This document shows positions 48,167-63,192 of a stretch of DNA of 64,000 bases, piece after piece (position 1 is the stretch's first letter; each line of letters begins with the position of its first letter). This DNA comes from Opitutaceae bacterium (GTDB lineage: Bacteria; Verrucomicrobiota; Verrucomicrobiia; Opitutales; Opitutaceae). Location: assembly GCA_049428505.1 (NCBI GenBank), contig JBMTAG010000001.1:13154-77153 (forward strand), read 5' to 3'. Both the position numbers and the translations under genes were made by a program. The notes below the pieces were generated by a model. That model was not told the origin of the DNA. It was given only the letters and a program-made list of their open reading frames with translations, and did no database searches.

Positions 48167-49261
48167 TCACGGCAGGAGGTAAATCTCCGCCAGCGCCACC
48201 CCGGTGGCCCCGCCGACGCCGGCCACGCGCAACGTGTACGCGCCGGGGGCGAGGTTCAGCACCAGCGCGGCGTCGCGGCTGCCCGCCGCGAGCGGAAAGG
48301 CTCCCGCGTCCACCGCGGCGGTCGCCGCCTCGGCGCCCGCGGCTTGGGCCTGCCAGTTGTCGTTGGCCGCCACCACCTCGCTGCCCTGCAGCACCTCCAG
48401 GATCGGGTCCGCAAGGGCGCCGGCGACGCCGAAGGCGGTGAGTCCGGGCCCGATCGCCCGGACCAGCACGCGGCGCGGAGCGTCACCGGCCAGCACGAAC
48501 CCCGGGATGAGGACCGACTCGCCGCTGCCCACCTGCGCCCGCGTCGAGAGGTTGGCGAGCCGTCCGGCCGCCCCCGGAGCCGGCGTCTCGCCGATCACCT
48601 CGCGGGGCAGCGCCGTCACATCGAGGTCCGGGCTGGTGTTCCAGCGGCGCACCCAACCCGGCGGCGCGGGAACGGTCGTGCGGAGGATGACCGTGTTGTC
48701 GAGTTCCAGGTCCTCGCTCCAGATGAAGCTCGCGCCCGTGAAATCCTCGGCGACGTAATCCCCGTCAGGTCGGACCTGCTCGGCGGGATACTCCCGCGCG
48801 TTGGGCCAGGCGCTGTCGTCGAAGCCGGGCGCGTGCCACCCCGCGGGCAGCGGCGTGCGCTCGACGCGGGGATTGACGACATCGCGGTTGAGGGGACCGC
48901 GGTGAAACGCCTTGGCCTTCCACCGGGCGCTGGTGACGGTGCCGTCCCCGAGCCGGAGGATGAAGCCGGCGTCGCCGATCCGGTTCCCATATTCCAGCCC
49001 GGTGGCGGGCTCGGCGTTATCCTTGGCGAGCACCGCAATGGTCAGCGGGTATTCGGGCAGAATCCGCACCGAGACCTGGTTGTGCGGCAGGAAATCGATC
49101 GCATCCGCGGCCACCAGCTTCCCGTTGATGAAGACCGCGAACCAATTGTCGGCGTAGGCCGTGAGCCGGATCGTGTCGCTGAGGGTCGGCTTGACCTGCG
49201 CGCAGGCGGCGGACGTCGCCAGGACGGCCAGCAGGGCGAGCCTTCGGTGCCGCGGCGTCAT
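48167..49261 (-). CDS. secreted protein: jelly-roll-like N-domain plus one copy of the shared C-terminal module
   Basis: The ATG at 49261 overlaps the ECF sigma stop (ATGA). Signal peptide MTPRHRRLALLAVLATSAACAQ. The N-domain is a paralogue of 59739..60488, and the C-terminal module lies at 48170..48562. Confidence 0.7.
   Translation of the reverse strand: MTPRHRRLALLAVLATSAACAQVKPTLSDTIRLTAYADNWFAVFINGKLVAADAIDFLPHNQVSVRILPEYPLTIAVLAKDNAEPATGLEYGNRIGDAGFILRLGDGTVTSARWKAKAFHRGPLNRDVVNPRVERTPLPAGWHAPGFDDSAWPNAREYPAEQVRPDGDYVAEDFTGASFIWSEDLELDNTVILRTTVPAPPGWVRRWNTSPDLDVTALPREVIGETPAPGAAGRLANLSTRAQVGSGESVLIPGFVLAGDAPRRVLVRAIGPGLTAFGVAGALADPILEVLQGSEVVAANDNWQAQAAGAEAATAAVDAGAFPLAAGSRDAALVLNLAPGAYTLRVAGVGGATGVALAEIYLLP
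48170..48562 (-). repeat. shared protein module, copy 1 of 7 (131 aa, C-terminal)
   Basis: RLANLSTRAQVGSGESVLIPGFVLAG..RVLVRAIGPGLTAFGVAGALADPILEV...NDNW...GAFPLAAGSRDAALVLNLAPGAYTLRVAGVGGATGVALAEIYLLP*. Confidence 0.8.
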
Positions 49262-49869
49262 CGGCTGGAAGCGCCGTCCGCGCGTGATCCGCACAGGGTG
49301 CGGACCTCCCGGCGAAGCTGGACGCGAAGCCGGTGCAGGCGCACCTTGAGCGCGTTGAGGGTGAGGCCCGCCTCGTCGGCCATCACCCGATACGTGACGC
49401 CCGCGATGACCTGTTCGATCAGGCGGCGGTCGCGGCCCGCGCAGCGGCCAAGGGCGACTTCCAGCGCCTCCCGGACCTCATGCACGCGATCCTCCGCGGC
49501 AGGATCGGTGAGTCCCGCCCAGAAGCCGTCCTCGACGGGAATCGCGGGGCGGCAACGCAGGCGCCGCCGGTGGTCCAGCGCGCAGTTGCGCGCGAGCGTG
49601 AAGAGCCACGTCTCGAAGCGCGGGACCTCCCGCAGCAGGTGAAGTTGGGTGACCATCTTGACCCAGACCTGCTGGAGGACGTCCTCGGCCGCCCAGGGAT
49701 CGCCCACCTGGCCGCGCAGGAATCCACGGAGCCTCCGACGGTAGAGGCGGACCAGTTCTGTCTGGGCCAGCGGGTCGCCGGCCCGCGCGCGAATGACAAG
49801 CGCGGCCAGTGCCACTTCGCCGGACGGGACCGTTCCCGCCGCAACCTCGCGGGGATGAAAGGCGACCAT
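49258..49869 (-). CDS. RNA polymerase ECF-type sigma-70 family factor
   Basis: Sigma-2 region: LVRLYRRRLRGFLRGQVGDPWAAEDVLQQVWVKM...FETWLFTLARNCALDHRRR. Sigma-4 HTH: YRVMADEAGLTLNALKVRLHRLRVQLR. Confidence 0.85.
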   Translation of the reverse strand: MVAFHPREVAAGTVPSGEVALAALVIRARAGDPLAQTELVRLYRRRLRGFLRGQVGDPWAAEDVLQQVWVKMVTQLHLLREVPRFETWLFTLARNCALDHRRRLRCRPAIPVEDGFWAGLTDPAAEDRVHEVREALEVALGRCAGRDRRLIEQVIAGVTYRVMADEAGLTLNALKVRLHRLRVQLRREVRTLCGSRADGASSR

Positions 49870-49872
49870 GGG

Positions 49873-52800
49873 TCAGGGGACGTCGTACAGCTCGAGGAGC
49901 GCGACGCCGGAGGCGGCGCCCGCGCCGGAGATCTGGGCGGTGTAGGCGCCCGGCTCGAGGACCACCAGCAGGGCGGAATCGCGGGAATTGGCCGGCAGGG
50001 CGAAAGCCCCGACCTGGCCGGCGGCCGCGGCCAGCGCAACCGCCCCGCCGGCGCCCCAGTCGTCATTCAGCCTCAGCGCCGCGGCGGAGCCCTGCCGGTA
50101 CAGCGCGAGCTGCGGATCCGCAAGGACGTCCCCCACCCCGAAACCGGCGAGGGCTGGTCCCACCGCGCGGATCAGCAGTCGTTTCGGCTCGGAGCCGGCG
50201 ATCACGAAGCCCGCGATCAGCACCTCCGCGCCCGTTCCGACGCGGGTCCGGGCCGAGAGGTTGACCAGACCTGCAACCCCGGCGCCTGACCGGTGGTAGA
50301 GCTCGACCAACGCAACCCCGCTGGCGCCGGCCTTGCCGGTCAACTGGGCCGTGTAGGCCCCCGCCGCCGGCGCCGTAAGCAGTGCGGCATCGCGGCTGCC
50401 GGCAGGCAAAGCAAAGGCGCCGAATTCGGCCGCCGCGCTGGCCAGCGCCGTCGCGTCCGCCCCCCCGCCCCAGTCGTCGTTGGTCGCCAGCGCCACACCC
50501 GCCCCGCTGAAGAGGGTGAGGACCGGATCCGCCAGGGACCCTCCGACGCCAAAGGCGCCCAAGGTCGGACCCACCCCGCGGGCCAACAGGGTCGGCGGCG
50601 AGCCCCCCGCGAGCACGAAGCCCACGATGAGGGTGGCATCGCCCGCACCCGCCCCGGATCGCACGGAGAGGTTGGCCATCCGGGCGGTGCCGAGCGCCAC
50701 CCCCGCCGGGCCGGACTCCACGGTCCCGCCGGATCCGGAAACGAGCACGGAGTAGGTGCCCGCATCGGCGGCGCCCACGTTCGCCAGGGCCAGGGTCGAT
50801 CGCGTGGCGCCCGGGATCGCCACGCCCGCCTTCCGCCACTGGTAGGTCAGCGTTCCCTCCCCCGTCGCCCCCACCGTCAGCTGCACGCTCGCCCCCGGCG
50901 CCACGGTCTGGAACGCCCGCGGCTCCTCGGTGAGCACCGGCGGCCGGGCCTGCGGGGCAGAGCGGACCGCGAAGACCGGGTAGGATGACGTCATCAGCTC
51001 GTAACTGATGATCCCCTGCGCCGCCCGGTTGGGACCGTTCGCGGCGGGCACCGTGTTGTTGTAACCGAATTCGACCAGCCAGGCGCTCGTGGGCGCCGCG
51101 TTGCCGGAACGGAGCGCCGTCGAGGACCAGTAGGCGGTCGCCGGGGTCGTGGCCGACGGAAACACCAGCCGGTTGATCGCCGCCTGCGCGCCGTTCCTCG
51201 ACGCGGCCGTGGCGAGGGTGTAGTCGGTCAAGCTCTGCAGCTCGCGCACGTTCGGCAGGCGCCAATCGCCGTGGCCCGCGAGCGCGAGGTCTTCCGCGTA
51301 GGCCAGTGCGCTGGACCAAGTCATCGCGGGGGCGGGCACCTGCGTCCACATCAGCCCGGTGTCGAGGTCGGTGACCGTGCCGTCGAGATTGTTGACGTAG
51401 TGGTGCCCGTTCCCCGGGCGGGCGCCCCGCACATAGCGCGCGTGGTAGCGGAGCCGGCCGCCAGCGCTGATCGTCTCAGCCTTCGGCTTGGGCCCCAGAC
51501 CGCCGCCCGCGTTCACGCTCCAGACGCGCGCGGCGTCCGTGCCGTAGATATCGCTCGACCACCAGTACTCCGCCGCCCCCGCGGGATGCGGGGGGAAGAA
51601 GGTGGTGTTCATCGCGGGGTTGCCCTGGCCGAAGGTCATGAGGCTGAAGAGCTCCATCGGGGTCGGCAGGCGCCAGTCCGAATAACCCCCGGTATCGAGG
51701 GTAGCGGCCCGGGCGACCGCCGCCTCCCAGGTGCTCTCACCGGCATCGATCTTCTGCCACATCAGGCCGGTGACGAGGTCCGTCACCGTGCCGTCGCCGT
51801 GGTCACGGTACGCGGGCGGGTTGAGGGTGTAATCGGAGTCCTCGCCGAAGACGGGCGTCGCGTCGAGGGTCTGGCCGGTGTCGGGCAGCGCCCGCAGGCT
51901 CGGCCCACCCATCACGTAGGAAGTGATGCGATTGTTGCCGTTCTGGTACGTGGTCGTCGTCGGGCTGATGCCCGGGCGGCGCCAGGTGATCGTGAGCGTC
52001 TTCGGGTTGGCCGCCCGGTTCAGGCGCCAGCAGATGTCGTACGTCGTGGTGCCCACGACGTAGCGCATCAGGTAAGCGTCAGGAGAGGCGGGGGCGCCGG
52101 CCGACTCCACCAGGTTGCCGGCGTCGTCGGTGGCGAGGGAGGCGGGGTTGCGGTAGGCGGTGATGCGGGCGCCCGGAATCGCCTGGGCAACGTACCCCCC
52201 GGTGTTGTTCTGCCGGATGGCTTGCGTGGTGGGCTGGCCGTCGACCTGCCCGCCGAACTGGACCACCGTGCCGTGGAAGGCGGCGGGAAGATAGGGGGGC
52301 TGAGGTCCCGCCGCGTCCGTGCCGATCGCGTGGTAATGATACTTCCACGGGCCGTGGTCATGGCCGCCATCCGCGTCGAGCGCCAGGCGCGGGGAACCAT
52401 CCGGCTCGGTGTAGCCGTAGATTGGGTAGCCATCGAGGGCCCACGCTACCGGCAGGCCGACGCCCAGCACCGCCTGCAGGTGCACCGGCGCCAGGTGGTA
52501 GTGGTAGTCATCCGCGAGGCCGCAGTGTCCCCCGTAGAGGTCGAGCTCCCCGATCTCGTAGGAGACCCGGCCCCCGTTGTTGCGGGGATTGAAGATCGGC
52601 ACGCCATCGGCGCCGATCGCGATGGCCCCCCGCTGGAAGTTCCCGCCGGAGATCGGGATCGGGTTCGCCGCGGGGGTCGGCACCAGCGGCAGACGCCACA
52701 CGTTCGGCTTGCCGAACGCGAGCGACCCCTGATCCCGTTCGGGGCTGGTGAGCGAGGCGAAGTAGGAAACCGGCAGCGGCACCTGCTGCTGCCAGGAGGT

Positions 52801-53175
52801 GATGCCGACCATCAGGTTCGGCTGCCGGACCGGGTCCGGCATGCTGTCCGACTCGACGTGGAAGGTGGTCTGGTCCCAGTACGTGCGGACCTTCGGGCGG
52901 AAGGCGCCGAACGAGGCCGCCATCGCCGCTCCGTAGCCCGGGGGCGGCGCGCCGGCGGTCGCGGGCTCCGGTGCGTACGGGGCGACCACCGCGGCCGCGG
53001 CCCGGAACGGCGTCCGCGCCCGCTCCAAGGCCAGCTGGGCGAGCAGTTCGGCCCGCGCCGCCAGGACCTCCGGCGACGGCGGCTGGTCATCGTGCCAGGA
53101 ATGGGCCCCGGCCGGGGACCCACCGGCGAGCAGGGCGCCCGACAACGCGAGCAGGCGCGGGAGGATTCGCTTCAT
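49873..53175 (-). CDS. secreted multidomain protein: YHYH domain, 2x DUF1566-like, Ig-like, 2x shared module
   Basis: Internal ATG of ORF 49873..53262 (MKRILPRLLALSGALLAGGSPAGA). YHYH motifs GGHCGLADDYHYHLAP and KYHYHAIG. DUF1566-like TGLMWQK...GGYSDWRLPTPMELFSL and TGLMWTQ...GHGDWRLPNVRELQSL. Ig-like TLTYQWRKAGVAIPGA...DAGTYSV. Modules lie at 50296..50685 and 49876..50271. Confidence 0.75.
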   Translation of the reverse strand: MKRILPRLLALSGALLAGGSPAGAHSWHDDQPPSPEVLAARAELLAQLALERARTPFRAAAAVVAPYAPEPATAGAPPPGYGAAMAASFGAFRPKVRTYWDQTTFHVESDSMPDPVRQPNLMVGITSWQQQVPLPVSYFASLTSPERDQGSLAFGKPNVWRLPLVPTPAANPIPISGGNFQRGAIAIGADGVPIFNPRNNGGRVSYEIGELDLYGGHCGLADDYHYHLAPVHLQAVLGVGLPVAWALDGYPIYGYTEPDGSPRLALDADGGHDHGPWKYHYHAIGTDAAGPQPPYLPAAFHGTVVQFGGQVDGQPTTQAIRQNNTGGYVAQAIPGARITAYRNPASLATDDAGNLVESAGAPASPDAYLMRYVVGTTTYDICWRLNRAANPKTLTITWRRPGISPTTTTYQNGNNRITSYVMGGPSLRALPDTGQTLDATPVFGEDSDYTLNPPAYRDHGDGTVTDLVTGLMWQKIDAGESTWEAAVARAATLDTGGYSDWRLPTPMELFSLMTFGQGNPAMNTTFFPPHPAGAAEYWWSSDIYGTDAARVWSVNAGGGLGPKPKAETISAGGRLRYHARYVRGARPGNGHHYVNNLDGTVTDLDTGLMWTQVPAPAMTWSSALAYAEDLALAGHGDWRLPNVRELQSLTDYTLATAASRNGAQAAINRLVFPSATTPATAYWSSTALRSGNAAPTSAWLVEFGYNNTVPAANGPNRAAQGIISYELMTSSYPVFAVRSAPQARPPVLTEEPRAFQTVAPGASVQLTVGATGEGTLTYQWRKAGVAIPGATRSTLALANVGAADAGTYSVLVSGSGGTVESGPAGVALGTARMANLSVRSGAGAGDATLIVGFVLAGGSPPTLLARGVGPTLGAFGVGGSLADPVLTLFSGAGVALATNDDWGGGADATALASAAAEFGAFALPAGSRDAALLTAPAAGAYTAQLTGKAGASGVALVELYHRSGAGVAGLVNLSARTRVGTGAEVLIAGFVIAGSEPKRLLIRAVGPALAGFGVGDVLADPQLALYRQGSAAALRLNDDWGAGGAVALAAAAGQVGAFALPANSRDSALLVVLEPGAYTAQISGAGAASGVALLELYDVP
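49876..50271 (-). repeat. shared protein module, copy 2 of 7 (132 aa, C-terminal)
   Basis: GLVNLSARTRVGTGAEVLIAGFVIAGSEPKRLLIRAVGPALAGFGVGDVLADPQLALY...NDDW...GAFALPANSRDSALLVVLEPGAYTAQISGAGAASGVALLELYDVP*. Confidence 0.8.
50296..50685 (-). repeat. shared protein module, copy 3 of 7 (130 aa)
   Basis: ARMANLSVRSGAGAGDATLIVGFVLAGGSPPTLLARGVGPTLGAFGVGGSLADPVLTLF...NDDW...GAFALPAGSRDAALLTAPAAGAYTAQLTGKAGASGVALVELY. Confidence 0.8.
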
Positions 53176-53258
53176 GGGAGGAAGGATGCGGGCGGCGCGT
53201 GAAGGGCGGCGCGCGGAACGGATGAGGAACCTGTCATGTGCGGCCCGGCGGGCGGGCG

Positions 53259-55769
53259 TCACGGGACCTCGTAGATCTCGACCAGGGCGACGCCGCGGGC
53301 GTTCGCGTTCGGTCCGCTCACCTGCGCCGTGTACGCGCCCGGTTCAAGGGCGATCAGGACCGCGGCGTCCCGGCTGTTGGCGGGCAGCGGGAAGGCCCCG
53401 ACCGTGCCCGCGGCCAGCCCGATCTGCGCGGCGTTGGGCGCGGCGAGCCAGTTGTCGTTGGTCTCCAGCGCGGTGGTCGAACCCTGACGGCGAATCGTCA
53501 GTTGCGGGTCGGCGAGGGCGCCGCCGACCCCGAAACCGGCCAGCGTCGGACCGACCCCGCGGATGAGCACCTGCTTCGGCACATCGCCGGAAATCACGAA
53601 ACCGGCCAGCAGCGCGTCGCCGCCACTCACCTGGGCGCGGGCCGAAACGTTGACGAGGCGCGAAGCGCCCGCGGCACCCCCGCGCTCGTAGGCCTCGACC
53701 AGCGCCACCCCCGCGGCGGCCGTCTTGCCGGCCACGGTGGCCGTGTAGGCGCCCGGGCTGAGTTGGGCGAGCACCGCGGCATCGAGGCTCGCCGCCGGCA
53801 GCGCGAACGCCCCCGCTTGGGCCGCGGCCGAAGCCATTTCCGCGGCGTTCGCGGCGCGCCCCCAGTCATCGTTGGCCGCGACCGCGGCGCCGCCGGATCC
53901 CGTGACGGTCAGGACCGGATCGGCCAAGGCGCCGGTGACGCCGAACGCCGCCAGCGTGGGGCCGACCCCGCGGACGAGCACGGGCAGCCCGGCGCCGGGT
54001 CCCGCGACAAAGCCCACGATGAGGGAATCGTTGCCCGTCGCCGCGGTGGAACGGACGGAGAGATTCACCAGGCGGCTCGCGCCGAGGGTGAGGTTCGCCG
54101 CGGCCGAGGTGACGGCCCCGGCCGAGGTGCGCACGATCACGGTGTACGCCCCGACATCCGCGGCCTGCACCCGGGGCAAGCTGAGCAGCGAGGAGGAGGC
54201 GCCGGGGAGGTCCACGCCGTTGCGCTGCCACTGGTACGAGAGCGGCAGGGAGCTGACGGCCGTAACCGAGAAGGTCGCCGGCCCACCGACCGCGACCCGC
54301 CGCGCCTGCGGCTGCTGCGTGATCACCGGCGCGGGCGTCGCCGGTTCGAGCGCGCCGATGGTGTAGGCATAGGCGACGGCCCCGTGCTGCTTGCCCGGGC
54401 CCTCGTCCGCCGGCAGGAAGGACCGCACGTACTCGACCTTTACTCCGCCCGGCGAGACGGTCACGCGCGCGTAGCCGGAGTTGGCGACCCGGTCCCCGGT
54501 CGCGTAGGCATCGGTGTTGAAGAGCGAGTAGTTCGGATCCGCGGGATTGCCCAGCGACTGGTACACCACGCCATCGAGCTGCTGGCGAACGAAGATGTGG
54601 TCGTGGCTCTGGAAGAAGATCGTGACCTTGTTCGCCGCCATCAGCTGGTGGATGGGCATCGCCCAGCCGGGGCGCCGGGCCGCGAAGCCGGGGGAGCCGT
54701 TGCTGTTGAGCCCGCCCCACTCGAAGCGACCGGCGACGTCGATCCCGCCGCGGCCGGTGCCGAGGACGTGGTGGGCGAAGACGAACTTGTACTTCGCCCG
54801 GCTGTTCTCGAGCGTCTCCTTCAGCCAGCGGTACTGCGCGTCGCCGTGCGTGATCAACCAGCCATCCGCGGTCTTCGGTCCGCCGTAGAAGTCGCCATCG
54901 ACCACGACCGGGGATCCCCAGTAGGGATCGATCGCCACGAACAGCGCGTCGCCCCAGGTCCAGGCAAAATGGTTCCGGAGCAGGCCGATGTGGGGCACCA
55001 CCTCGGGGTTGCCGGAATAAAAAGCGTCCGGCGCGGGCTGCGGATAATGGGAGTTGCGGGCGTTCTGCGCCCAGACCGCGACGTTGTCCGGGGTCCCGTC
55101 GAGCAGGTAGCGCGCGGCCTGCTCGTGGTTGCCGTTCACCAGCACCAGCGCGGCGCCGCGGCCCGGGATGCCAAGATAGGGGCGCTGGATGCGATAGCGC
55201 TCGACGACCTGGGGCTGCGTCACGGCCCGCGGATTCGCCTGGTTGATCGTGTCGACGCTGAAATCGTCCCCGAGAAGGAAGAGGAAATCCGGCCGATCGG
55301 TCGCCACCAGCTGCATCGTCCGGGTGTAGAGCGTCGCATCGAACATGTTCCGGGTGCGCTCGGGATGGGAGTCCCCCTGCACCGCGAAGACGAAGGTGCT
55401 GCCCGCGGGACGCGCGGTCATGAAGGAATACTCCGGGCTGGCGTCGAACTCCGCCGCGCCGGCCGGACGGAATCGGATGCGGTAGTAATGCCTGGTGTTC
55501 GGCGCCAGGTTGCGCAGCTCCAGCTCCCGGGGCTGGCCGGCCGCAAACTCCAGCGTCTCACTGCGGCGGTCATAGGTGCCGGGAGCCGTGCCGTGCTCGA
55601 GGTAAGCGGCGAGCGCCGTGGAGGGCATGAGATTGGCGGCCATCACGGCATCGGTCGGGCGGCCCAGCACAAGGGTGCCGGGGAATTCGGCGGCCCCCAG
55701 CTCCGATCCGAAGCAGCAGAGCCCGAGCCCGATCCAAAACCCGAATGGAAAGCGGTGCGCATCGACCAT
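53259..55769 (-). CDS. secreted purple-acid-phosphatase-like metallophosphoesterase with Ig-like domain and 2x shared module
   Basis: N-terminal FN3-like part (NTRHYYRIRF). Metallophosphatase motifs VQGDSHPE, LLGDDFS, VNGNHE, FAHHVLG, FQSHDH. Ig-like LSYQWQRNGVDLPGA...DVGAYTV. Modules lie at 53688..54077 and 53262..53663. Confidence 0.8.
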   Translation of the reverse strand: MVDAHRFPFGFWIGLGLCCFGSELGAAEFPGTLVLGRPTDAVMAANLMPSTALAAYLEHGTAPGTYDRRSETLEFAAGQPRELELRNLAPNTRHYYRIRFRPAGAAEFDASPEYSFMTARPAGSTFVFAVQGDSHPERTRNMFDATLYTRTMQLVATDRPDFLFLLGDDFSVDTINQANPRAVTQPQVVERYRIQRPYLGIPGRGAALVLVNGNHEQAARYLLDGTPDNVAVWAQNARNSHYPQPAPDAFYSGNPEVVPHIGLLRNHFAWTWGDALFVAIDPYWGSPVVVDGDFYGGPKTADGWLITHGDAQYRWLKETLENSRAKYKFVFAHHVLGTGRGGIDVAGRFEWGGLNSNGSPGFAARRPGWAMPIHQLMAANKVTIFFQSHDHIFVRQQLDGVVYQSLGNPADPNYSLFNTDAYATGDRVANSGYARVTVSPGGVKVEYVRSFLPADEGPGKQHGAVAYAYTIGALEPATPAPVITQQPQARRVAVGGPATFSVTAVSSLPLSYQWQRNGVDLPGASSSLLSLPRVQAADVGAYTVIVRTSAGAVTSAAANLTLGASRLVNLSVRSTAATGNDSLIVGFVAGPGAGLPVLVRGVGPTLAAFGVTGALADPVLTVTGSGGAAVAANDDWGRAANAAEMASAAAQAGAFALPAASLDAAVLAQLSPGAYTATVAGKTAAAGVALVEAYERGGAAGASRLVNVSARAQVSGGDALLAGFVISGDVPKQVLIRGVGPTLAGFGVGGALADPQLTIRRQGSTTALETNDNWLAAPNAAQIGLAAGTVGAFPLPANSRDAAVLIALEPGAYTAQVSGPNANARGVALVEIYEVP
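53262..53663 (-). repeat. shared protein module, copy 4 of 7 (134 aa, C-terminal)
   Basis: SRLVNVSARAQVSGGDALLAGFVISGDVPKQVLIRGVGPTLAGFGVGGALADPQLTIR...NDNW...GAFPLPANSRDAAVLIALEPGAYTAQVSGPNANARGVALVEIYEVP*. Confidence 0.8.
53688..54077 (-). repeat. shared protein module, copy 5 of 7 (130 aa)
   Basis: SRLVNLSVRSTAATGNDSLIVGFVAGPGAGLPVLVRGVGPTLAAFGVTGALADPVLTV...NDDW...GAFALPAASLDAAVLAQLSPGAYTATVAGKTAAAGVALVEAY. Confidence 0.8.
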
Positions 55770-55789
55770 CCCCCATTCAAGCGCGGGCG

Positions 55790-55818
55790 GATGACGCCAC
55801 CGGGAAAGCTCGGATTAA
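55790..55818 (-). promoter_or_regulatory. conserved promoter-like element upstream of the metallophosphatase gene (TTAATC-N17-GTCATC)
   Basis: The same element, with the same 17-nt spacer and the same 20-nt distance to the ATG, recurs upstream of the paralogous gene at 59703..59731. Confidence 0.3.
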
Positions 55819-55832
55819 CAGAATGTCATCGC

Positions 55833-57002
55833 CTAGGGCTTCAGCCGGAAATACCGCACTGACCGCCGTCCCTCGTCCCCATAGATGGCATCGACGTCGC
55901 GGAGCGGCATGATCAGCCAAGGGGCGAAGAGCCCCTCCCCGTTCTTGGTGAAGACAAATCCATCCCCGAGCACCACGCAGGAATGGAAAACCAGCCCCTC
56001 CGGCGAGATGAAGCACGCGACGTCGCCGAAGTGTCCCGGAGCCGCCACTTCGCGGTAGTTCTGGGTCAGCTCGAGGTAAGCCGGTTGCGCGTCGAGGTAA
56101 TAGGTCTCCGGACGGGCGGCGAGGAAGTTCAGGGCGGTCCAGTTGCAGTCGGGCAAACGTCCCGCCACCGCGTCGCGCAGGGAAGGATAGGTGTAAAGCC
56201 GTTCACGCGCGAGCGGAGGCAGCAGCAGCGCGAGCTCCAGGGAATCTCCGGCGCGACCCGCGACCAAGGCCGCCAGGAGCGGCCGCGTGTCAAGGTGGCG
56301 CTCGTCCGCGGTCCAGTGGCGGAGAAAGGCCTCCTGCTGCGCACGCGCGGGCGGCTCGAGCCACAGGCGCCACGCTTGCCGCCGGGTCATGAAACGACGC
56401 GCCGCGAGGATCTCCGGCGCGGACCGCGCGGCTTGGATCAGCGCGGAGACGTCGCTGAAGCGCCAGTGCCCGCCGCGCTGCCAGCGCAGCCGGCGGACCA
56501 GATCCATCTGGGCCGCACTGAGTTCGCTGCCGCTCAGCCAGGCGTCCGGATCGCCAAAGAGGAAAAGGGGGCCGAAGTGGTCCGGATTAAGCGGGGAGCG
56601 CGCCAGTTCCGCATACACCGCCGCGCGCACCTCCGGCCGGAACTCCACCAAGAGGGCAACCGGGGGCAGCAGCGCCACACCGTCCGAGCCGACCCGGCGA
56701 ACCTCCGCTCGCCTTAGCACGGCCAACTGCGTCTCCTCCACCCCCGCGCGACGCAGCCGCGCCTCGACCTCGTCGGGCCCGATCCCCGGGAAACGCCAGA
56801 CCGGCGCCTGATCCGGCTTGGCGGCCAACTCCAGCAGCGCATCGGCCGCCTCAAGGTAAAGCGAGCGCGCCTTCAGTTGGCCGACATCCTCCCTCTCCGC
56901 CCCCGTTCCGGCGAAGCCGCCTGGCGCGAACAGGGCCGCGAACATGAGGCAGCGGACCAACCGCCAACCAAAGGCTAAGCACGGCGAGGGGGAGGATGCC
57001 AT
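55833..57002 (-). CDS. hypothetical protein with C-terminal NlpC/P60-like (papain-fold) signature
   Basis: ORF 55833..57026 opens with GTG, and in-frame ATGs lie at 57002 and 56945. The C-terminus LPDCNWTALNF...GDVACFISPEGLVFHSCVVLGDGFVFTKNG matches the Cys...GD(L/V)xxF...H...G.G pattern of NlpC/P60 enzymes. Confidence 0.5.
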   Translation of the reverse strand: MASSPSPCLAFGWRLVRCLMFAALFAPGGFAGTGAEREDVGQLKARSLYLEAADALLELAAKPDQAPVWRFPGIGPDEVEARLRRAGVEETQLAVLRRAEVRRVGSDGVALLPPVALLVEFRPEVRAAVYAELARSPLNPDHFGPLFLFGDPDAWLSGSELSAAQMDLVRRLRWQRGGHWRFSDVSALIQAARSAPEILAARRFMTRRQAWRLWLEPPARAQQEAFLRHWTADERHLDTRPLLAALVAGRAGDSLELALLLPPLARERLYTYPSLRDAVAGRLPDCNWTALNFLAARPETYYLDAQPAYLELTQNYREVAAPGHFGDVACFISPEGLVFHSCVVLGDGFVFTKNGEGLFAPWLIMPLRDVDAIYGDEGRRSVRYFRLKP

Positions 57003-57014
57003 CAAGGCCGGGAA

Positions 57015-57041
57015 GACGGCGTGCACGCGCCGGCGGTTTCA
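57015..57041 (-). promoter_or_regulatory. ECF-type promoter-like motif TGAAAC-N17-CGTC
   Basis: Minus strand: TGAAAC (57041..57036), a 17-nt spacer and CGTC (57018..57015), followed by TTCCC, 12 nt before ATG 57002. Motif match only. Confidence 0.3.
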
Positions 57042-57072
57042 GCGCCCCGCCCGTTCCCGGTCCGTGCCGACG

Positions 57073-59682
57073 TCAGGGCGCCGTTTTCGGCGCGATGGTG
57101 TAGGTGTGCGCGACCCCGCGGTTGCGCAGCGTCGCCGTCTCCTGGGTGGGCAAGGCCGCGCGCACGTACTCCACCCTGGTCTCGGCTGCGCTCACGCGCA
57201 CGCGCAGGTGGCCGGAATTAGGCAGGATGGTGCCCGTCACGTACCCCCCGTCCCGGGCGCTTCCCGTGGAGAAATTGCCCGTCCCGGGCTGGGGACATTC
57301 CTGATAAACCACGCCATCGAGTTGCTGGTATCCGTAAAAGTGATCGTGACCGTGGAAGACCGCGCTCACCCCGTGCTGCACGAGCAAGGCATGGATGGGG
57401 ACGCCCCAACCGGGGCGCTTTTCGGCGAAACCCTCCGAATCGTCCGCGTTGCGGCCGCCCCATTCGTAACGCCCCGCCGCCTCGACGCCGCCGCGCCCGG
57501 AAGCCGCCCCGCCCACGAGATTGTGCAGGAAGAGGAACTTGTGGCGCGCGCGGCTGCGGGACAAGGTCCCCCGCAACCAGTCGTACTGGGTGCGTCCAAG
57601 GCTCCAGCGCCAGTTGTCGCCCCCGTTCGCGTTCGGATTTGCCAGCGTGTTGTTGTAGGGGTCGAGGACCACGAAGAGCGCATCCCCCCACTCCCAGGCG
57701 TAATAGTTCTCCAGCAATTCCTCCTGGCCGAGGATGGTGCGTTTCTCGGCGCTACCAGTGTAGATGCCGCCGGACACCGGCGTCGGGAAATGGAGCTTCC
57801 GCGCCCGCAGATTCCAGCTGCCCACGTTGCCATTCAAACCGGGGCTGCGGTCCGCCGCGAACACGTAGCCGTACTCGCCCTCGTGGTTGCCCAGCGAGAA
57901 GAAGAACGGCACCGAATGCGCGAACTGCGCAAACTCGTTCCGCAGGGTCACCGCCCGGTACTCCACCAGCCCGTAGTTCACGGTCAGGCCCGGGATGATC
58001 GTGGACAGCTTGTCCGACATGAAGATGTCGCCGAGGTCCACGTGGAAATCCGGGCCGTCCGCCGCAATATTGCGCATCGCCAGCGCGAAGAGCCCGGGAT
58101 TTGTCGCTTCGTCCAGATGCGGGTCGGCAGTAATCGTGAAGGTGAAATCGGCCCCCGGCGCCCGCTGGGTGACGAAGCTCCGTTCCCCCCGGGCGCGAAA
58201 GACGGCCTCGCCGGGCGCCCGGTAGCGGACGCGGTAATAGTGGCGCCGCCCGGCCGCCAGCGGGGCCCCGCCCGGAGGCGCCTCGATCCGGATCTCCGCC
58301 GGCGCGCCCGCCGGATAAACCGCGCTCGCGGTGCGCGCGACGTACTCCCCGGGACTCGCCCCGAACTCGACGTAGGCCTCGAGGGTCGAGGCCGCCTCGA
58401 AATTCACGGTGACCCCGCGGTCGGTGGGGATGCCGAGGAACTCCGGGGACGTGAAGAGGGCATCCTTGAAGGTGGCTGCCACAAGGTACGCGCCGCTCGC
58501 GCTGACCCCGCGGCTGCCGGCGGCATCCACCGCCGTGACCGCATAGCTGACGGTCGCCCCGGCCGCCTGCGTCGGAATCACCGCCGCGAAGATCCCGTCT
58601 GCCGCCAGTTGGTCCTCGTGGCGGCCGTCGTCCCACATCGGCACGCTCTGCGGCGCGCCGCCGCCGATCCGGTACTCGAGCGTGGCCTGCACCGGCCGCC
58701 CCCCGTCCGGGGTCTGGATCCGCGCGGAGATGACGGTGGCGTCGAGAAAGGTCGGGATCGCCGGCTGGGTGGCGACTTCCGCGAAGGTGAAGCCGGCCGT
58801 GGACGGGGCCGGCGCCGGGGCCTCGGCGTAAACCTCCACCAACGCGGTCCCGGTGCCCCCGCCGACCCCGCTCACGACGGCGGAGTACGAGCCGGCCGGA
58901 AGGCTGGCCACAAGGGCCGCGTCGCGGCTGCCCGCGGCCAGCTCGAAGGCGCCGAACGCGCGGGCCGCGGCCGCCACCTCGGCGCCGTTCGCCGCGCTGC
59001 CCCAGTTGTCGTTGGTGGCCACCACCACGCCGCCGCGGTAGAGTGTGATGGTGGGGTCCGCGAGCACGCCGCCGACCCCGAAGGCGCCCAGCCCCGGCCC
59101 CACCGCGCGGATCAGGATGCGCAGCGATCCGGGCCCCGCGATGACGAAGCCCGGGATGAGGACGTTGTCCCCGGTCCCCACGAAGGCCCGCGTGGACGCG
59201 TTGACCAGGTAGGCGCCCGCCGCGGGCTCCGCGTCGTAGACCTCAAGCAGCGCGACCCCGGAGGCACCCGCGGGCGCCGTGACCGGCGCGGTGTAACCAC
59301 GGGGGACCAGCGAACGCACGAGAGCCGCGTCGCGGCTGCCCGCGGGCAGCGCGAAGGCGCCCACCGCACCCATCACGGAGGCGTCCGCGGCCAGCCAGTT
59401 GTCGTTCTCGGCGAGCACCGTGGCGTCGGCCAGCAGCGCCAGTCGCGGATCCGCGAGCGAACCGGCGACCCCGAACCCCGCCAGCGCCGGTCCGACCGCC
59501 CGCACCAGCACCGGCTTCGCCCCCGCCCCGGCCACCACGAAGCCCGAGATCGGCGTGCCGGCGGCACCCCCGACGGCAGCCCGGGTGGCCAGGTTCACCA
59601 GCCGGGCGGAAGGCGGCTCCGCGGCCGACACGAGCAGGGCGGGCAGCAGCGGGAGCAGGAGCAGGCGGCGAAACAGGCGCAT
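57073..59682 (-). CDS. secreted metallophosphoesterase with 2x shared module at the N-terminus
   Basis: Signal peptide MRLFRRLLLLPLLPALLVSAA. Modules lie at 59236..59607 and 58828..59211. Beta-rich FN3-like spacers follow (RRHYYRVRY). Metallophosphatase motifs ITADPHLD, LGDIFMSD, LGNHEG, FLHNLVGG, FHGHDH. Confidence 0.8.
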   Translation of the reverse strand: MRLFRRLLLLPLLPALLVSAAEPPSARLVNLATRAAVGGAAGTPISGFVVAGAGAKPVLVRAVGPALAGFGVAGSLADPRLALLADATVLAENDNWLAADASVMGAVGAFALPAGSRDAALVRSLVPRGYTAPVTAPAGASGVALLEVYDAEPAAGAYLVNASTRAFVGTGDNVLIPGFVIAGPGSLRILIRAVGPGLGAFGVGGVLADPTITLYRGGVVVATNDNWGSAANGAEVAAAARAFGAFELAAGSRDAALVASLPAGSYSAVVSGVGGGTGTALVEVYAEAPAPAPSTAGFTFAEVATQPAIPTFLDATVISARIQTPDGGRPVQATLEYRIGGGAPQSVPMWDDGRHEDQLAADGIFAAVIPTQAAGATVSYAVTAVDAAGSRGVSASGAYLVAATFKDALFTSPEFLGIPTDRGVTVNFEAASTLEAYVEFGASPGEYVARTASAVYPAGAPAEIRIEAPPGGAPLAAGRRHYYRVRYRAPGEAVFRARGERSFVTQRAPGADFTFTITADPHLDEATNPGLFALAMRNIAADGPDFHVDLGDIFMSDKLSTIIPGLTVNYGLVEYRAVTLRNEFAQFAHSVPFFFSLGNHEGEYGYVFAADRSPGLNGNVGSWNLRARKLHFPTPVSGGIYTGSAEKRTILGQEELLENYYAWEWGDALFVVLDPYNNTLANPNANGGDNWRWSLGRTQYDWLRGTLSRSRARHKFLFLHNLVGGAASGRGGVEAAGRYEWGGRNADDSEGFAEKRPGWGVPIHALLVQHGVSAVFHGHDHFYGYQQLDGVVYQECPQPGTGNFSTGSARDGGYVTGTILPNSGHLRVRVSAAETRVEYVRAALPTQETATLRNRGVAHTYTIAPKTAP
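58828..59211 (-). repeat. shared protein module, copy 6 of 7 (128 aa, N-terminal region of its protein)
   Basis: YLVNASTRAFVGTGDNVLIPGFVIAGPGSLRILIRAVGPGLGAFGVGGVLADPTITLY...NDNW...GAFELAAGSRDAALVASLPAGSYSAVVSGVGGGTGTALVEVY. Confidence 0.8.
59236..59607 (-). repeat. shared protein module, copy 7 of 7 (124 aa, directly after the signal peptide)
   Basis: ARLVNLATRAAVGGAAGTPISGFVVAGAGAKPVLVRAVGPALAGFGVAGSLADPRLALL...NDNW...GAFALPAGSRDAALVRSLVPRGYTAPVTAPAGASGVALLEVY. Confidence 0.8.
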
Positions 59683-59702
59683 GGAGCATGCTGGCCCGAA
59701 CG

Positions 59703-59731
59703 CATGAAGCGCCGCGGCGGGCTCCGATTAA
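59703..59731 (-). promoter_or_regulatory. conserved promoter-like element upstream of the metallophosphatase gene (TTAATC-N17-TTCATG)
   Basis: Counterpart of 55790..55818, with identical spacing to the start codon. Confidence 0.3.
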
Positions 59732-59738
59732 AGCCCTG

Positions 59739-60488
59739 TCATCCGCCCTTGCCGGCATCCCCCGGGCGCACGATCTCGGCCGGCAACTCCAGGTCCGGCT
59801 TGGTGGTCCACCGGGGGCGCCACTCCGGACGCTCGATCCGCGTCCGGAAGACGACGGTGTTGTCGAGGTCGAGGTCGCCCGTCCAGATGAAGCGGGCCCC
59901 GGCGAAATCCGCCTGACCAAAGGCCTCCTTCGGCCGGACGCGCTCGACGGTATACTCCACCGCGGGCGACCAGTCCGCGTCGTCAAAGTCGACGGCGTAC
60001 CAGCGGGCGGGCAACGGCTGGCGCTCGACCCGCTTTTCGCCCCCGGGTCCCGCCACGGGCCCGCGGAAGAACGCGCGCGCCTTCCACGAGGCATTGGTCA
60101 CCGTGCCGTCGCTGAACTTGAGGATGAAGCCGCCGTCGCCGATGGACGTCCCGTACTCGTGGCCGGTGCGCGGGTCCGCGTTGTCCATCGCGAGGACCGC
60201 GATCGTCATCGGGTATTCCGGCAGCAGGTCGACGGAGACGACGTTGTGCGGCAGGAAGTCGATCGGATCCACCGCGACGAGGCGCCCGTTGACGTAGAGG
60301 GCGAACCAGTTGTCCGCGTAGACGTTCGCGCGGATCGTGTCCCGCAGCGTCGGCTTGATCACCCCCGCATCCGGGCCCGGGGCCGCCTTTCGGCCCGGCC
60401 GGGGCCGGCTGCCCTCCGCGGGAGCATCAGCCCCCGCGAGGAAGGGGACGCACAGGAGGGCGAACAGGATCAGGCGTGGCGAGTTCAT
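59739..60488 (-). CDS. secreted jelly-roll-like protein, paralogue of the N-domain of 48167..49261
   Basis: ATG at 60488 (the ORF opens with GTG 60500). Signal peptide MNSPRLILFALLCVPFLAGADA. About 60% identity by eye to the other copy: KPTL.DTIR...YADNWFA...NG.LVA.D.IDFLPHN.VSV..LPEYP.TIAVLA.DNA.P.TG.EYG..IGD.GFIL...DGTVT.A.WKA.AF.RGP. Confidence 0.7.
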   Translation of the reverse strand: MNSPRLILFALLCVPFLAGADAPAEGSRPRPGRKAAPGPDAGVIKPTLRDTIRANVYADNWFALYVNGRLVAVDPIDFLPHNVVSVDLLPEYPMTIAVLAMDNADPRTGHEYGTSIGDGGFILKFSDGTVTNASWKARAFFRGPVAGPGGEKRVERQPLPARWYAVDFDDADWSPAVEYTVERVRPKEAFGQADFAGARFIWTGDLDLDNTVVFRTRIERPEWRPRWTTKPDLELPAEIVRPGDAGKGG

Positions 60489-60533
60489 CCCCCATGGCAC
60501 GCCCGCCGGATGTGCGGTTCACTCGCAAACACA

Positions 60534-62348
60534 TTACGGCTCATTCATCCCGGGCGTTCTCCGACGGCGCAGCACCCACAGGTCGCCCTGCGGCGAATCG
60601 AACGGGTGCCTTCCCTCCGCGCTCGCGACGGGCTCATACTCCCGGTCGATCCACGCCAGCAGCAGCTTCCCCTCGCCTTCCCGTTCGCCGTAGCGGTTCA
60701 CGCCGTATTCCCGCAGGTCCCGGGTCAGGGCGACGACCCAGTCCGGCGGGCGGGCCTCGAGCTGCTGCACGAGGGCGGCCTCCGCCTCCCCCCGCAGGGC
60801 GAAGGAGAACAGGAAGAATGGCGGCACGGGGCTGGGCATACGGGTGAGGTAGTTCAGCATCAGGCCCTCCGGCAGCACGAGCAGCGTCCCCGTGGCGCCC
60901 TCCCGGCGCAGGACCTCCTGCGCGAAGTTCAGCCACGCGCCGTACGGTCGGGGCGGCGGCCGGGCGAGGAAGGCGTCCGCACCGGAACCCACGCGGAGCA
61001 CCCGCGAGGCCAGCTCCGCGCGCGACGCGGCGACAATCTGGCTGCCGTACCCCAGGAGCATCCCGGCCGCCGCCAGGATCAGCACCCGGCGCCCGGCCAC
61101 GGAACCGGAGGGGAGCACCCGCGGCCACTCGACCACCAGCACGGCCGAGAGGACCATCAGGGCCAACGCCGCCTGGTAGAAACCGAAATGATGCAGCCGG
61201 CCGTGCAACATCATCCGCGCCATCAACCCGGCGGCCAGCGTGGCCAGCAGGAGGCGCTCCGGACGCGCCCCGGCGCGCCTCCATGCGACGAACGCAAGGT
61301 ACAGCAGCAGCAGCCCCAGCCAGCTTCGCGGCACACCATCGCCCACGTGCGGCTGGCGCGCCGCCAGGCAGAGCACGCTCAGCCCGCCTCCGGCCGCGAC
61401 CGCTCGGAGGACCGGACGGCGGATCGCGCCGATCCGGTCCCCGAGGAGCGTCAGCGCGAGCAGCGTGACGAGCGCCCCCGCCGTCCATTCGAGATGCTCG
61501 CGGAAATTGGTCCACGGCGCGTTCCAGCCGGAGAGCAGGGCCTGAAAGTGACCATCCACGGCGGCACCCGAGGAAACCATCCGCCACGCGGTGGTCGCCT
61601 CGCTCCATCCCCGCATCCAGCCGCCGTCGCGCGCCGCGCGGAGCGCCAGAAGGCAGATGGGCAGGAGCGTGCCCGCGACGGCGGGCAGCACCGAGGCGCC
61701 GGCCACGGGAAGCCCGCGGCGGCGGGCGCAATGCACCGCGACGGCTCCCACCAGACCGCCCGCCAGGATGAACTCGGGCTTGAGCACCCAGCAGAGACCC
61801 CAAGCGAACCCCGCCGCCCCCGCCCACGCCGGGCGCCCCGAGCGCAGCCAGGCACTCGCCCCGAACGTGAGCGCGAGGACGGCGAGCATTCCGTGCGTGA
61901 CCTCGTGCGCGTAAGGAAAAGCATAATTGTAATTTCCGGTTTCCCCCAGCTGCGTGAATCCGCAGAGGGTCACGAACACTGCCCCGGCCGTCGCGGCCCC
62001 CCGCCAGCCCCACGCGCGCCGGAACAGGATCACCACGAGCACCAGGATCGCGGCGAAAATCACCAGATTGGCCGTGACCAGCGTCATCAGCCCCGGCCCA
62101 AAGCACCGGAAGAGGAGCCCGTTCCACTCCTGCGACCACGGCCCGTAGACGCCGTCTACCTCCCGGTAGAGGCGATCCCCGCACGCCAGCCGCCAGGCCG
62201 TGTAGAGCTCCCGCCCGGAGTCGACGATCTCGTCGGGCCAGCGACGCCACGAGAGCACCAGGAAGGGCGACGCGAGGCCCAGCAACGCGGCGGTCAGCAG
62301 CGCAGTGCCGAGGGAACGGAGTCGCGGACGGAATGGGCGATCAGGCAT
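60534..62348 (-). CDS. polytopic membrane protein, GT-C-fold (ArnT/PMT-like) glycosyltransferase candidate
   Basis: Internal ATG of ORF 60534..62621 with GGAG 9 nt upstream. At least 11 hydrophobic segments. The first loop WPDEIVDSGRELYTAWRL resembles the DE-containing loop 1 of GT-C enzymes. The C-terminal domain is soluble. Confidence 0.5.
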   Translation of the reverse strand: MPDRPFRPRLRSLGTALLTAALLGLASPFLVLSWRRWPDEIVDSGRELYTAWRLACGDRLYREVDGVYGPWSQEWNGLLFRCFGPGLMTLVTANLVIFAAILVLVVILFRRAWGWRGAATAGAVFVTLCGFTQLGETGNYNYAFPYAHEVTHGMLAVLALTFGASAWLRSGRPAWAGAAGFAWGLCWVLKPEFILAGGLVGAVAVHCARRRGLPVAGASVLPAVAGTLLPICLLALRAARDGGWMRGWSEATTAWRMVSSGAAVDGHFQALLSGWNAPWTNFREHLEWTAGALVTLLALTLLGDRIGAIRRPVLRAVAAGGGLSVLCLAARQPHVGDGVPRSWLGLLLLYLAFVAWRRAGARPERLLLATLAAGLMARMMLHGRLHHFGFYQAALALMVLSAVLVVEWPRVLPSGSVAGRRVLILAAAGMLLGYGSQIVAASRAELASRVLRVGSGADAFLARPPPRPYGAWLNFAQEVLRREGATGTLLVLPEGLMLNYLTRMPSPVPPFFLFSFALRGEAEAALVQQLEARPPDWVVALTRDLREYGVNRYGEREGEGKLLLAWIDREYEPVASAEGRHPFDSPQGDLWVLRRRRTPGMNEP

Positions 62349-62436
62349 CGCCCAGTCTCCGCCGGGCGGATGAACCGCGGGCGGCGCAGGGCCATTACAA
62401 AGCTGAGAATACCCGCCCGCGGAACGTGAACCGGCG

Positions 62437-63192
62437 ATGAACACACTGTCATCACCCGCGGCTTGCCGGCCGCGCGGCCCGCGCTTCCCTTGCCTCGTGA
62501 AAATCCTGCTCCTCGAGGACGACCGGAAGCTCGCCGCGCTGGTCCGCAAGGGGCTGGAGACGCAGGGCTTCGTGGTCGACGCCTGCAATGACGGCCACGA
62601 GGCGTTCACCCTCGCCTCCACCCGGGCCTACGACGCGCTCGTCCTGGACGTGATGGTGCCGGGGCGCGACGGGCTGAGCATCCTCCGCGGGCTGCGCGCC
62701 CAGCGCCGGCCGGTGCCCGTGATCCTGATCACGGCGCGCGGCGCCCTCCCCGAGCGGCTCGAGGGCCTGAACCTCGGCGCGGACGATTACCTCACCAAGC
62801 CCTTCTACGTGGATGAACTGGTCGCCCGGCTCCACGCGGTGATGCGGCGCGCCGCGGGCACCCCGCTCACCCTGGTCGAGAACGGCCGGGTGACCGTGAA
62901 CCTGCTCACCCGCGAGGTGCGCGTCGGCAGCGAGGCGGTTGACTTGACCGCCCGGGAGTTCGCGCTGCTCACCTACCTGATGCGCTCCCCCGGCCAGACC
63001 TTCACCCGGCCGCAGATCTGCGAGCACGTCTGGAACTACCACTTCGACCCCGGCACCAACCTGGTCGACGTCTACATCCAGCGCCTGCGGCGCAAGCTGC
63101 GCGAGGGCGAGGAGGGCGGCCTGATCGAGACCATCCGCGGGGTGGGTTACCGGGCCCGCCCCGTGCCGGCCGCGCCGCGCCCCGCCCCGTGA
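62437..63192 (+). CDS. OmpR-family two-component response regulator
   Basis: Receiver KILLLEDD...LVLDVMVPGRDG...ADDYLTKPF, plus a winged-helix LTAREFALLTYLM...VDVYIQRLRRKL...IETIRGVGY. GTG 62497 (VKILLLEDD) is a more typical start than 62437. Confidence 0.9.
   Translation: MNTLSSPAACRPRGPRFPCLVKILLLEDDRKLAALVRKGLETQGFVVDACNDGHEAFTLASTRAYDALVLDVMVPGRDGLSILRGLRAQRRPVPVILITARGALPERLEGLNLGADDYLTKPFYVDELVARLHAVMRRAAGTPLTLVENGRVTVNLLTREVRVGSEAVDLTAREFALLTYLMRSPGQTFTRPQICEHVWNYHFDPGTNLVDVYIQRLRRKLREGEEGGLIETIRGVGYRARPVPAAPRPAP

Follow-up and report, generated by a model that had tools for sequence, protein, structure and literature searches.

What is the domain of about 130 amino acids that recurs seven times on four neighboring proteins with signal peptides and different heads, and what might it do for the proteins that carry it? 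The question is raised by a stretch of 64,000 nucleotides from an Opitutaceae bacterium of the phylum Verrucomicrobiota (NCBI GenBank assembly GCA_049428505.1, contig JBMTAG010000001.1, positions 13,154 to 77,153 of the forward strand), which we call the window and within which all coordinates below are counted. The domain, here called the module, is encoded on the minus strand in proteins that we designate A, B, C and D, and its copies are named after the protein and their order in it (A1, B1, B2 and so on). We conclude with good confidence that the module is ancient and folds independently, and, from structure prediction, that it falls in the beta-sandwich class of the pre-peptidase C-terminal (PPC) domain and the collagen-binding domain (CBD) of clostridial collagenases. 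As to its function, we give an even chance to the reading that a pair of modules acts as a non-catalytic handle by which exported proteins are bound or retained.

Seven old copies of one module in the window

A preliminary description, made by eye from the sequence, had marked out seven copies of the module. To the same effect, a profile hidden Markov model (HMM) of these seven copies, run on all six reading frames of the window, recovered exactly seven intervals at 160–189 bits and nothing else above noise. A broader HMM of 47 sequences, 43 of which come from other organisms and from which three of the window copies were left out, found the same seven segments only, at 126–149 bits, including the three held-out copies. 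The minus-strand translations can be aligned over about 130 amino acids, with 34 invariant columns and a mean column identity of 66%, and the conserved polar residues of the module are R9, R35, D52, N69, D70, W72, S97, D99 and E129. Chance resemblance is excluded, because thousands of homologs exist elsewhere.

Protein A carries a lone copy at its extreme C-terminus (A1, 48170..48562; 149–181 bits with the two HMMs), which position-specific HMMs place closer to the second than to the first copies of pairs. The other three proteins each carry a tandem pair, whose copies were delimited by alignment and by the HMMs and whose linkers of eight amino acids were read in the translations. In protein B, the first copy (B1, 50296..50685) is joined by HRSGAGVA (50272..50295) to the terminal copy (B2, 49876..50271); in protein C, the first copy (C1, 53688..54077) is joined by ERGGAAGA (53664..53687) to the terminal copy (C2, 53262..53663), which served for the structure model. 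The last copy runs directly to the stop codon in all three of these proteins, with the final residues EIYLLP in A, ELYDVP in B and EIYEVP in C. Protein D has its pair at the other end: D1 (59236..59607) follows directly on the signal peptide, starting at residue 26 after MRLFRRLLLLPLLPALLVSA and AEPPSA, and is joined by DAEPAAGA (59212..59235) to D2 (58828..59211), behind which come a Pro/Ala-rich linker and a phosphoesterase head. The copies, linkers and ends had all been read in the same way in the preliminary description.

The seven copies share 48–64% identity at the protein level and 59–67% at the DNA level, with synonymous divergence (dS) of 0.7–1.4, which is near saturation, and ratios of nonsynonymous to synonymous divergence (dN/dS) of 0.28–0.67. 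These values identify them as old copies under purifying selection, as had been proposed, and rule out a recent DNA repeat. The nearest relatives are found across proteins (B2 and C2 at 64%, B1 and C1 at 60%) rather than between the two copies inside one protein, indicating that the pair was duplicated as a unit.

At the start of six of the seven copies stands N-x-S/T and then R (as NLS, NVS or NAS; for example at 53647-53655); D1 reads N-L-A-T-R. From strand alternation, this sequon-like start is expected to face outward. Since the motif is absent from divergent family members, it probably has a structural role, and we consider a reading as an N-glycosylation site less likely for the same reason.

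The tandem pair across a very large family

Searching with the seven-copy profile in a word-indexed database gave 1,348 matches, led by hypothetical proteins from Opitutaceae and from further Verrucomicrobia, with no Pfam domain over the module region. An exhaustive search of 1.84 billion representatives of clusters at 50% identity extended the family to 18,139 representatives at E<=1e-3, of which 9,977 reach E<=1e-30. A scan of species genomes with the seven-copy alignment confirmed more than 503 relatives. The 80 best of these, which we used for all comparisons of loci, belong without exception to Opitutaceae, Opitutae or Verrucomicrobiota and include the cultured strains Opitutaceae bacterium EW11, D2-102 and Horticoccus sp. 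23ND18S-11. A variant subfamily with the signature NISTR...GDNVLIGGFI...NDNWK...ESAI is abundant and, where its members are named, comes from Chthoniobacterales. One outlier carrier bears the label of a Pseudomonadota metagenome-assembled genome (MAG) as its source. We found no literature on this module.

The architecture of the carriers was counted in the 150 best representatives. Two copies per protein are the rule (111 of 150), followed by four (33), three (4) and six (2), and two copies are likewise found in 104 of the 116 carrier open reading frames (ORFs) of the related loci. Of the 150 proteins, 137 have a copy at the extreme C-terminus and 34 a pair directly behind the signal peptide; pairs occupy both ends in 28, and six have a pair at the N-terminus only, as in protein D. 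The module had been described as position-independent and occurring in tandem, and this holds well beyond the window: it stands at either or both ends, and mostly in pairs. Some proteins (P0128, P0132, P0145 and P0157) consist of little more than a signal peptide and three to four modules. The linker inside a pair measures 5–16 amino acids, most often 7. There is a systematic difference between first and second copies, and position-specific HMMs sort 79% of held-out copies correctly. Judged from these sequence comparisons, the tandem pair is the evolutionary unit.

To see what the module is combined with, we scanned 62 full-length carriers for partner domains and listed the 25 commonest families. 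Immunoglobulin-like (Ig) domains of the Ig_3/I-set type lead the list, with 21 of the 62 carriers, followed by He_PIG (7), NHL (5), SBBP propeller repeats (5), PKD (4), BiPBP_C (3), Metallophos (2) and the accessory domain CHB_HEX_C_1 (2), which comes nearest to a glycoside hydrolase. Peptidase and glycoside hydrolase families are absent from these 25 commonest partners.

Genes for carriers tend to cluster, with two to four of them within 12 kb in 27 of the 80 related loci, and a single groundwater MAG contributes 10 carrier genes to this set. No recurrent non-carrier neighbor was found in the 80 loci; the commonest, a sulfatase-like ORF, occurs in 6.

A predicted beta-sandwich outside the named families

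For copy C2, AlphaFold2 produced from an alignment of 46 sequences a model with a mean predicted local distance difference test score (pLDDT) of 95.9 and a predicted template modeling score (pTM) of 0.90. The model is an eight-strand beta-sandwich of the jelly-roll type with two short helices. Comparison with the Protein Data Bank (PDB) by Foldseek gave as top match the PPC domain of the Bacillus anthracis collagenase (5sv5; E 9.5e-5, TM-scores 0.51/0.63). Further matches were the N-terminal domain of DeCLIC, the claudin-binding C-terminal domain of the Clostridium perfringens enterotoxin (C-CPE), the C-terminal jelly-rolls of the subtilases Tk-SP, SubHal and KP-43, GOLD domains, the ColG domain s3b and a porphyran carbohydrate-binding module (CBM), as well as the entries 1nqj, 1nqd, 2o8o, 4hpk and 5iku. 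These matches bear out the earlier suggestion of a beta-sandwich with PPC/CBM-like character. A search against viral models returned generic jelly-roll matches only. The model of the pair scored similarly well (pLDDT 94, pTM 0.87), and the pTM value predicts a defined geometry between the two lobes, in other words a rigid pair. Its best PDB match is the tandem CBD of ColG (5iku, E 3.3e-6), with a TM-score of only 0.30, so that the arrangement of the lobes is unlike that of s3a and s3b in ColG.

At the sequence level, the module had been left without a family name, and we arrived at the same result. When the carriers, the pair and a set of 47 diverse copies were scanned against Pfam (2025) and NCBIfam (2026), no family rose above threshold over the module, and sequence searches of the PDB with the profiles of 7 and 47 sequences yielded chance-level matches to periplasmic binding proteins only. 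The Pfam scans of the carriers and the 47 copies also showed no CBM family. Apart from a faint PPC signal, the only named sequence models to respond at all were NF038127 (the DVUA0089 family, FDP_fam) and PF23623 (GBD_IRG7_N), and they did so over part of the module only and in few members (3 of 47). NF038127 gives E 0.005–0.07, scoring 13.5 bits on protein A and 17.3 bits on protein C against a cut-off of 29, and PF23623 reaches E 3.5e-5 on one homolog, with 24.3 bits against a cut-off of 27.

The closest known relative in terms of fold is the group formed by PPC and the CBD domains s3a and s3b of Hathewaya histolytica ColG (PF04151; 1nqj, 5iku, 5sv5), which provides the top Foldseek hits for both the single module and the pair. 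PPC and CBD domains likewise occupy terminal positions in secreted proteins, in some cases as tandem copies, and have the motif L-x-P-G-x-Y...V in the penultimate strand. The module differs in its size of about 130 amino acids with two inserted helical segments, as opposed to about 70–115 for the PPC profile and the solved CBD and PPC chains, and in its carriers, which are not peptidases, either by their heads in the window or by the 25 commonest partners. The N-terminal calcium motif E-x-N-D of the ColG CBD is not apparent in it by eye. There is also no significant sequence or profile relationship: in a scan of the four carriers, the PF04151 HMM gave no match at E<=0.1, PPC scores stayed at 8–10 bits where the cut-off is 25.9, and only two of the 47 diverse members reached E<=1 (best 0.0028). 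Aligning the module alignment with ColG s3b by hhalign, after checking the s3b sequence against the PDB, gave a probability of 0.5% and an E-value of 0.12 over 12 columns, which comprise only the L-x-P-G-x-Y...V strand motif. We therefore rejected membership in PF04151, for which the HMM, the profile-profile comparison and the association with peptidases all failed, and the predicted fold alone agreed. A confident match to a characterized domain had been named beforehand as the outcome that would tell against the preliminary description; at the family level we found none, PPC remaining below threshold.

In the way it works, the module is most like PPC/collagen-binding or CBM-type terminal modules. 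Two other systems invite comparison. The C-terminal domain (CTD) used in type IX secretion (T9SS; Por_Secre_tail, PF18962/TIGR04183) is also a small beta-sandwich found at the extreme C-terminus, with a precise end, of numerous exported proteins that are unrelated but belong to one phylum. The module, unlike the T9SS CTD, comes in pairs or multiples and also occurs at the N-terminus and in module-only proteins. The Pfam and NCBIfam HMMs of the T9SS CTD had no match on the window proteins, and one homolog fragment reached E 0.13. Membership in this family was rejected on the missing HMM match, the prevalence of tandem pairs and the exclusively N-terminal pair of protein D. S-layer homology (SLH) domains and jelly-roll CBMs resemble the module as repeated terminal units, N- or C-terminal, on many unrelated exoproteins of one organism; their sequences are unrelated to it, as is the fold in the case of SLH, and glycoside hydrolases, unlike for CBMs, are rare among the partners of the module. 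Membership in a CAZy CBM family was rejected on the Pfam scans and on the absence of glycoside hydrolase families from the 25 commonest partners. A PEP-CTERM-type tripartite signal was rejected as well, considering that the proteins end with E-x-Y-x-x-P after the last strand and have neither a transmembrane helix nor a basic tail.

Carrier proteins and their gene array

The four carriers were assigned the following architectures. Protein A is encoded by a 375-amino-acid ORF (48167..49294) with a likely start at M12 (49261), and consists of a signal peptide, an unnamed domain of about 210 amino acids and one module. Protein B, from a 1129-amino-acid ORF (49873..53262) with the likely start MKRIL (53175), has a signal peptide, a YHYH domain, two Lcl_C (DUF1566) domains, an Ig domain and the module pair. 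Protein C (836 amino acids, 53259..55769) combines a signal peptide with a purple-acid/PhoD-like metallophosphoesterase, an Ig domain and the pair. In protein D (869 amino acids, 57073..59682), the signal peptide (about 59623-59682) and the pair are followed first by a choice-of-anchor X motif and then by a Metallophos domain paralogous to that of C. In a crude test of hydrophobicity and charge, all four have a signal-peptide-like N-terminus; together with the variety of heads (phosphoesterases, YHYH/Lcl_C/Ig, unnamed domain), this is in line with the earlier statement that the module is always found on signal-peptide proteins with different heads.

Two comparisons within the window show that the module can be gained, lost and moved. 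A protein of 253 amino acids (59739..60500) is a paralog of the N-terminal domain of A, with 58% identity over 212 amino acids, and has no module, making the module an optional add-on. The phosphoesterases of C and D, in turn, are paralogs with 38% identity over 481 amino acids, and have their pairs at opposite ends. The unnamed domain that A and its paralog have in common (48563-49261 and 59739-60500) displays the motif YADNWFA..NG.LVA.D.IDFLPHN; Pfam and NCBIfam scans of the domain in A gave no family assignment, and it also occurs in the related loci L001, L002 and L041.

The choice-of-anchor X motif of protein D (residues 347-375, 58558-58644) matches NCBIfam NF041940 with an E-value of 3.6e-7 and a score above the cut-off. 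What defines domains of this type is that they go together with alternative C-terminal anchors; protein D is without a C-terminal anchor and has its module pair at the N-terminus. The Ig_3/I-set domains of B (50713-50943) and C (54087-54329) are fused directly to the module pair, at a distance of about 3–5 residues, and Ig domain and pair may form a larger shuffled cassette.

All these genes belong to a co-directional array on the minus strand (48167-62621) with very short gaps, in the order 695-amino-acid membrane protein, 253-amino-acid paralog, D, 397-amino-acid protein, C, B, an extracytoplasmic function (ECF) sigma-70 factor (49258..49869, assigned by Pfam and NCBIfam, between B and A) and A. 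The order D, C, B, ECF sigma factor, A is kept in the Opitutaceae MAG loci L001, L002, L003, L014, L015 and L041 at 63–73% identity, with the number and position of the module copies preserved. The sigma factor is syntenic in L001, L015 and L066, and an ortholog of A with one module is retained in L001 and L002. With its two phosphoesterases, the array has the look of an operon that serves to scavenge phosphate at the surface.

At the far end of the array (60534-62621), the 695-amino-acid ORF encodes a multi-pass membrane protein with many hydrophobic segments and had no Pfam, NCBIfam or PDB sequence match; by eye, its first loop, which contains D-E, gives an impression reminiscent of GT-C glycosyltransferases. 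The 397-amino-acid protein between D and C (55833-57026) had no Pfam or NCBIfam match and no homolog in the 80 related loci, although its neighbors are conserved. Outside the array, on the plus strand, a protein of 1003 amino acids (38311-41322) has the PSD/PSCyt domain set (DUF1587, DUF1595, DUF1592, DUF1588 and DUF1585), which is typical of Planctomycetes and Verrucomicrobia and thus agrees with the taxonomic placement of the window.

What the module may do for its carriers

If the pair is a handle for binding or retention, Sec export of the carrier would come first, followed by attachment. The working unit would be the pair itself, packed across its linker of about 7–8 residues into a rigid two-lobed body, and this body would fasten its cargo to a ligand of polymeric nature, probably a glycan from the envelope or matrix of the cell itself. 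Several pairs on one protein would make the attachment multivalent. In the window, the attached cargo would comprise the two phosphoesterases, the YHYH/DUF1566/Ig protein and the small unnamed protein. We infer binding from the fold class, the placement at either or both ends, the presence and absence among paralogs, the multivalency and the module-only proteins, all of which fit a binding activity of the module's own better than a disposable tag. The preliminary description had likewise judged a cleaved sorting signal to be the poorer fit. The N-terminal copies, the module-only proteins and the tandem pairs speak for that judgment, while the fixed end of the C-terminal copies keeps sorting alive, so that it stands only in part.

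Several points weigh against a binding handle. Pfam, NCBIfam and hhalign against ColG s3b revealed no link in sequence to any family of binding domains. The likeness in fold is at the level of class only, the PDB matches having TM-scores of about 0.45–0.65 and 6–17% identity and the nearest of them about 0.5–0.6 and 10–14%, and sandwiches of this kind also act as structural, stabilizing or sorting domains. In addition, among 360 terminal copies there are 316 in which exactly three residues come after the E-x-Y in the last strand; they form the tail [E/N][L/V][P/Q], whose final residue is P in 189. Internal copies have D-[L/A]-x at the same positions. In the window, the tail lies at 48170-48178, 49876-49884 and 53262-53270. 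A simple binding module does not explain such a fixed end, which would also fit the recognition of a free C-terminus by some machinery.

A broader possibility takes up both features, namely that the rigid pair together with the fixed [E/N][L/V][P/Q]-COOH end is the recognition element of an undescribed system for surface display or attachment, specific to Verrucomicrobiota (Opitutales and Chthoniobacterales). We regard this as unlikely, if the best of the alternatives. If true, the system would be a functional counterpart of T9SS CTD or SLH anchoring and would govern the localization of thousands of unrelated exoproteins.

Somewhat less probable still, in our estimate, is a terminal secretion or sorting domain in the strict sense, where an outer-membrane machinery would recognize the C-terminal pair in the manner of a T9SS CTD and might cleave it or link it covalently. 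The extreme C-terminal position of a copy in 137 of 150 proteins, the conserved tail at fixed distance as opposed to the D-[L/A]-x of internal copies, the great diversity of heads on exported carriers and the choice-of-anchor X motif in protein D are all as such a domain would have them. The arrangement is hard to reconcile with the 34 proteins that have a pair right behind the signal peptide, six of which, protein D among them, have it nowhere else, and with twos, fours and sixes of copies and module-only proteins. Neither a neighbor recurrent enough to be a dedicated partner (at most 6 of 80 loci) nor an HMM match to Por_Secre_tail or another sorting domain was found, and type IX secretion is not known from Verrucomicrobiota.

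A binding handle could also be directed outward instead of toward the cell. As a carbohydrate- or mineral-binding module, it would bring enzymes and adhesin-like proteins to polymers or particles in the environment. We rate this at the same low level as sorting. The fold class takes in both CBMs and the collagen-binding domain, W72 in the N-D-N-W loop is invariant, and two of the window carriers are secreted phosphoesterases; against this, glycoside hydrolases and lyases are not among the common partners in the 62 carriers, the heads are mainly Ig and propeller domains with no obvious substrate, and no sequence match to a CBM family came up in the Pfam scans.

More doubtful is an accessory domain after the fashion of PPC, which would help in folding, solubility or stability during export and then be removed. 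PPC domains of secreted peptidases have been reported as removed after export. The best fold match is indeed a PPC domain, accompanied by the C-terminal jelly-rolls of the subtilases Tk-SP and KP-43, and faint PPC HMM matches (E 0.003, 2 of 47) and the L-x-P-G-x-Y...V motif common with ColG s3b point in the same direction. None of the window carriers is a peptidase, however, and the list of commonest partners contains no peptidase family; placement at the N-terminus or at both ends, module-only proteins and obligate pairing are foreign to PPC, and the strong conservation of many surface-type polar residues suggests more than a chaperone role.

Self-association, in which pairs on different molecules, or at the two ends of one protein type, would bind each other and build fibers, a surface layer or a matrix, would suit the pairs at both ends in 28 of 150 proteins, the module-only proteins with three to four copies, the systematic difference between first and second copies and the clustering of carrier genes (two to four within 12 kb in 27 of 80 loci), but is equally doubtful, as the single terminal pair of most carriers gives no valency for polymerization.

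What the module means for Verrucomicrobiota

While the fold class of the module is known, the very large unnamed family is new and its obligate-pair, either-end architecture unusual. Verrucomicrobiota are abundant in soil and freshwater, and the organization of their cell surface is little understood. With at least 18,000 protein clusters and several carriers per genome, the module marks out many proteins that are presumably exposed at the surface or secreted, and an HMM that names the domain would at once better the annotation of these genomes. Should it prove to be merely another PPC-like binding domain, the gain would lie mainly in annotation. The fixed C-terminal tail offers a testable handle on a dedicated sorting route, and identification of the ligand would show how these bacteria keep phosphatases and adhesin-like proteins at their surface.

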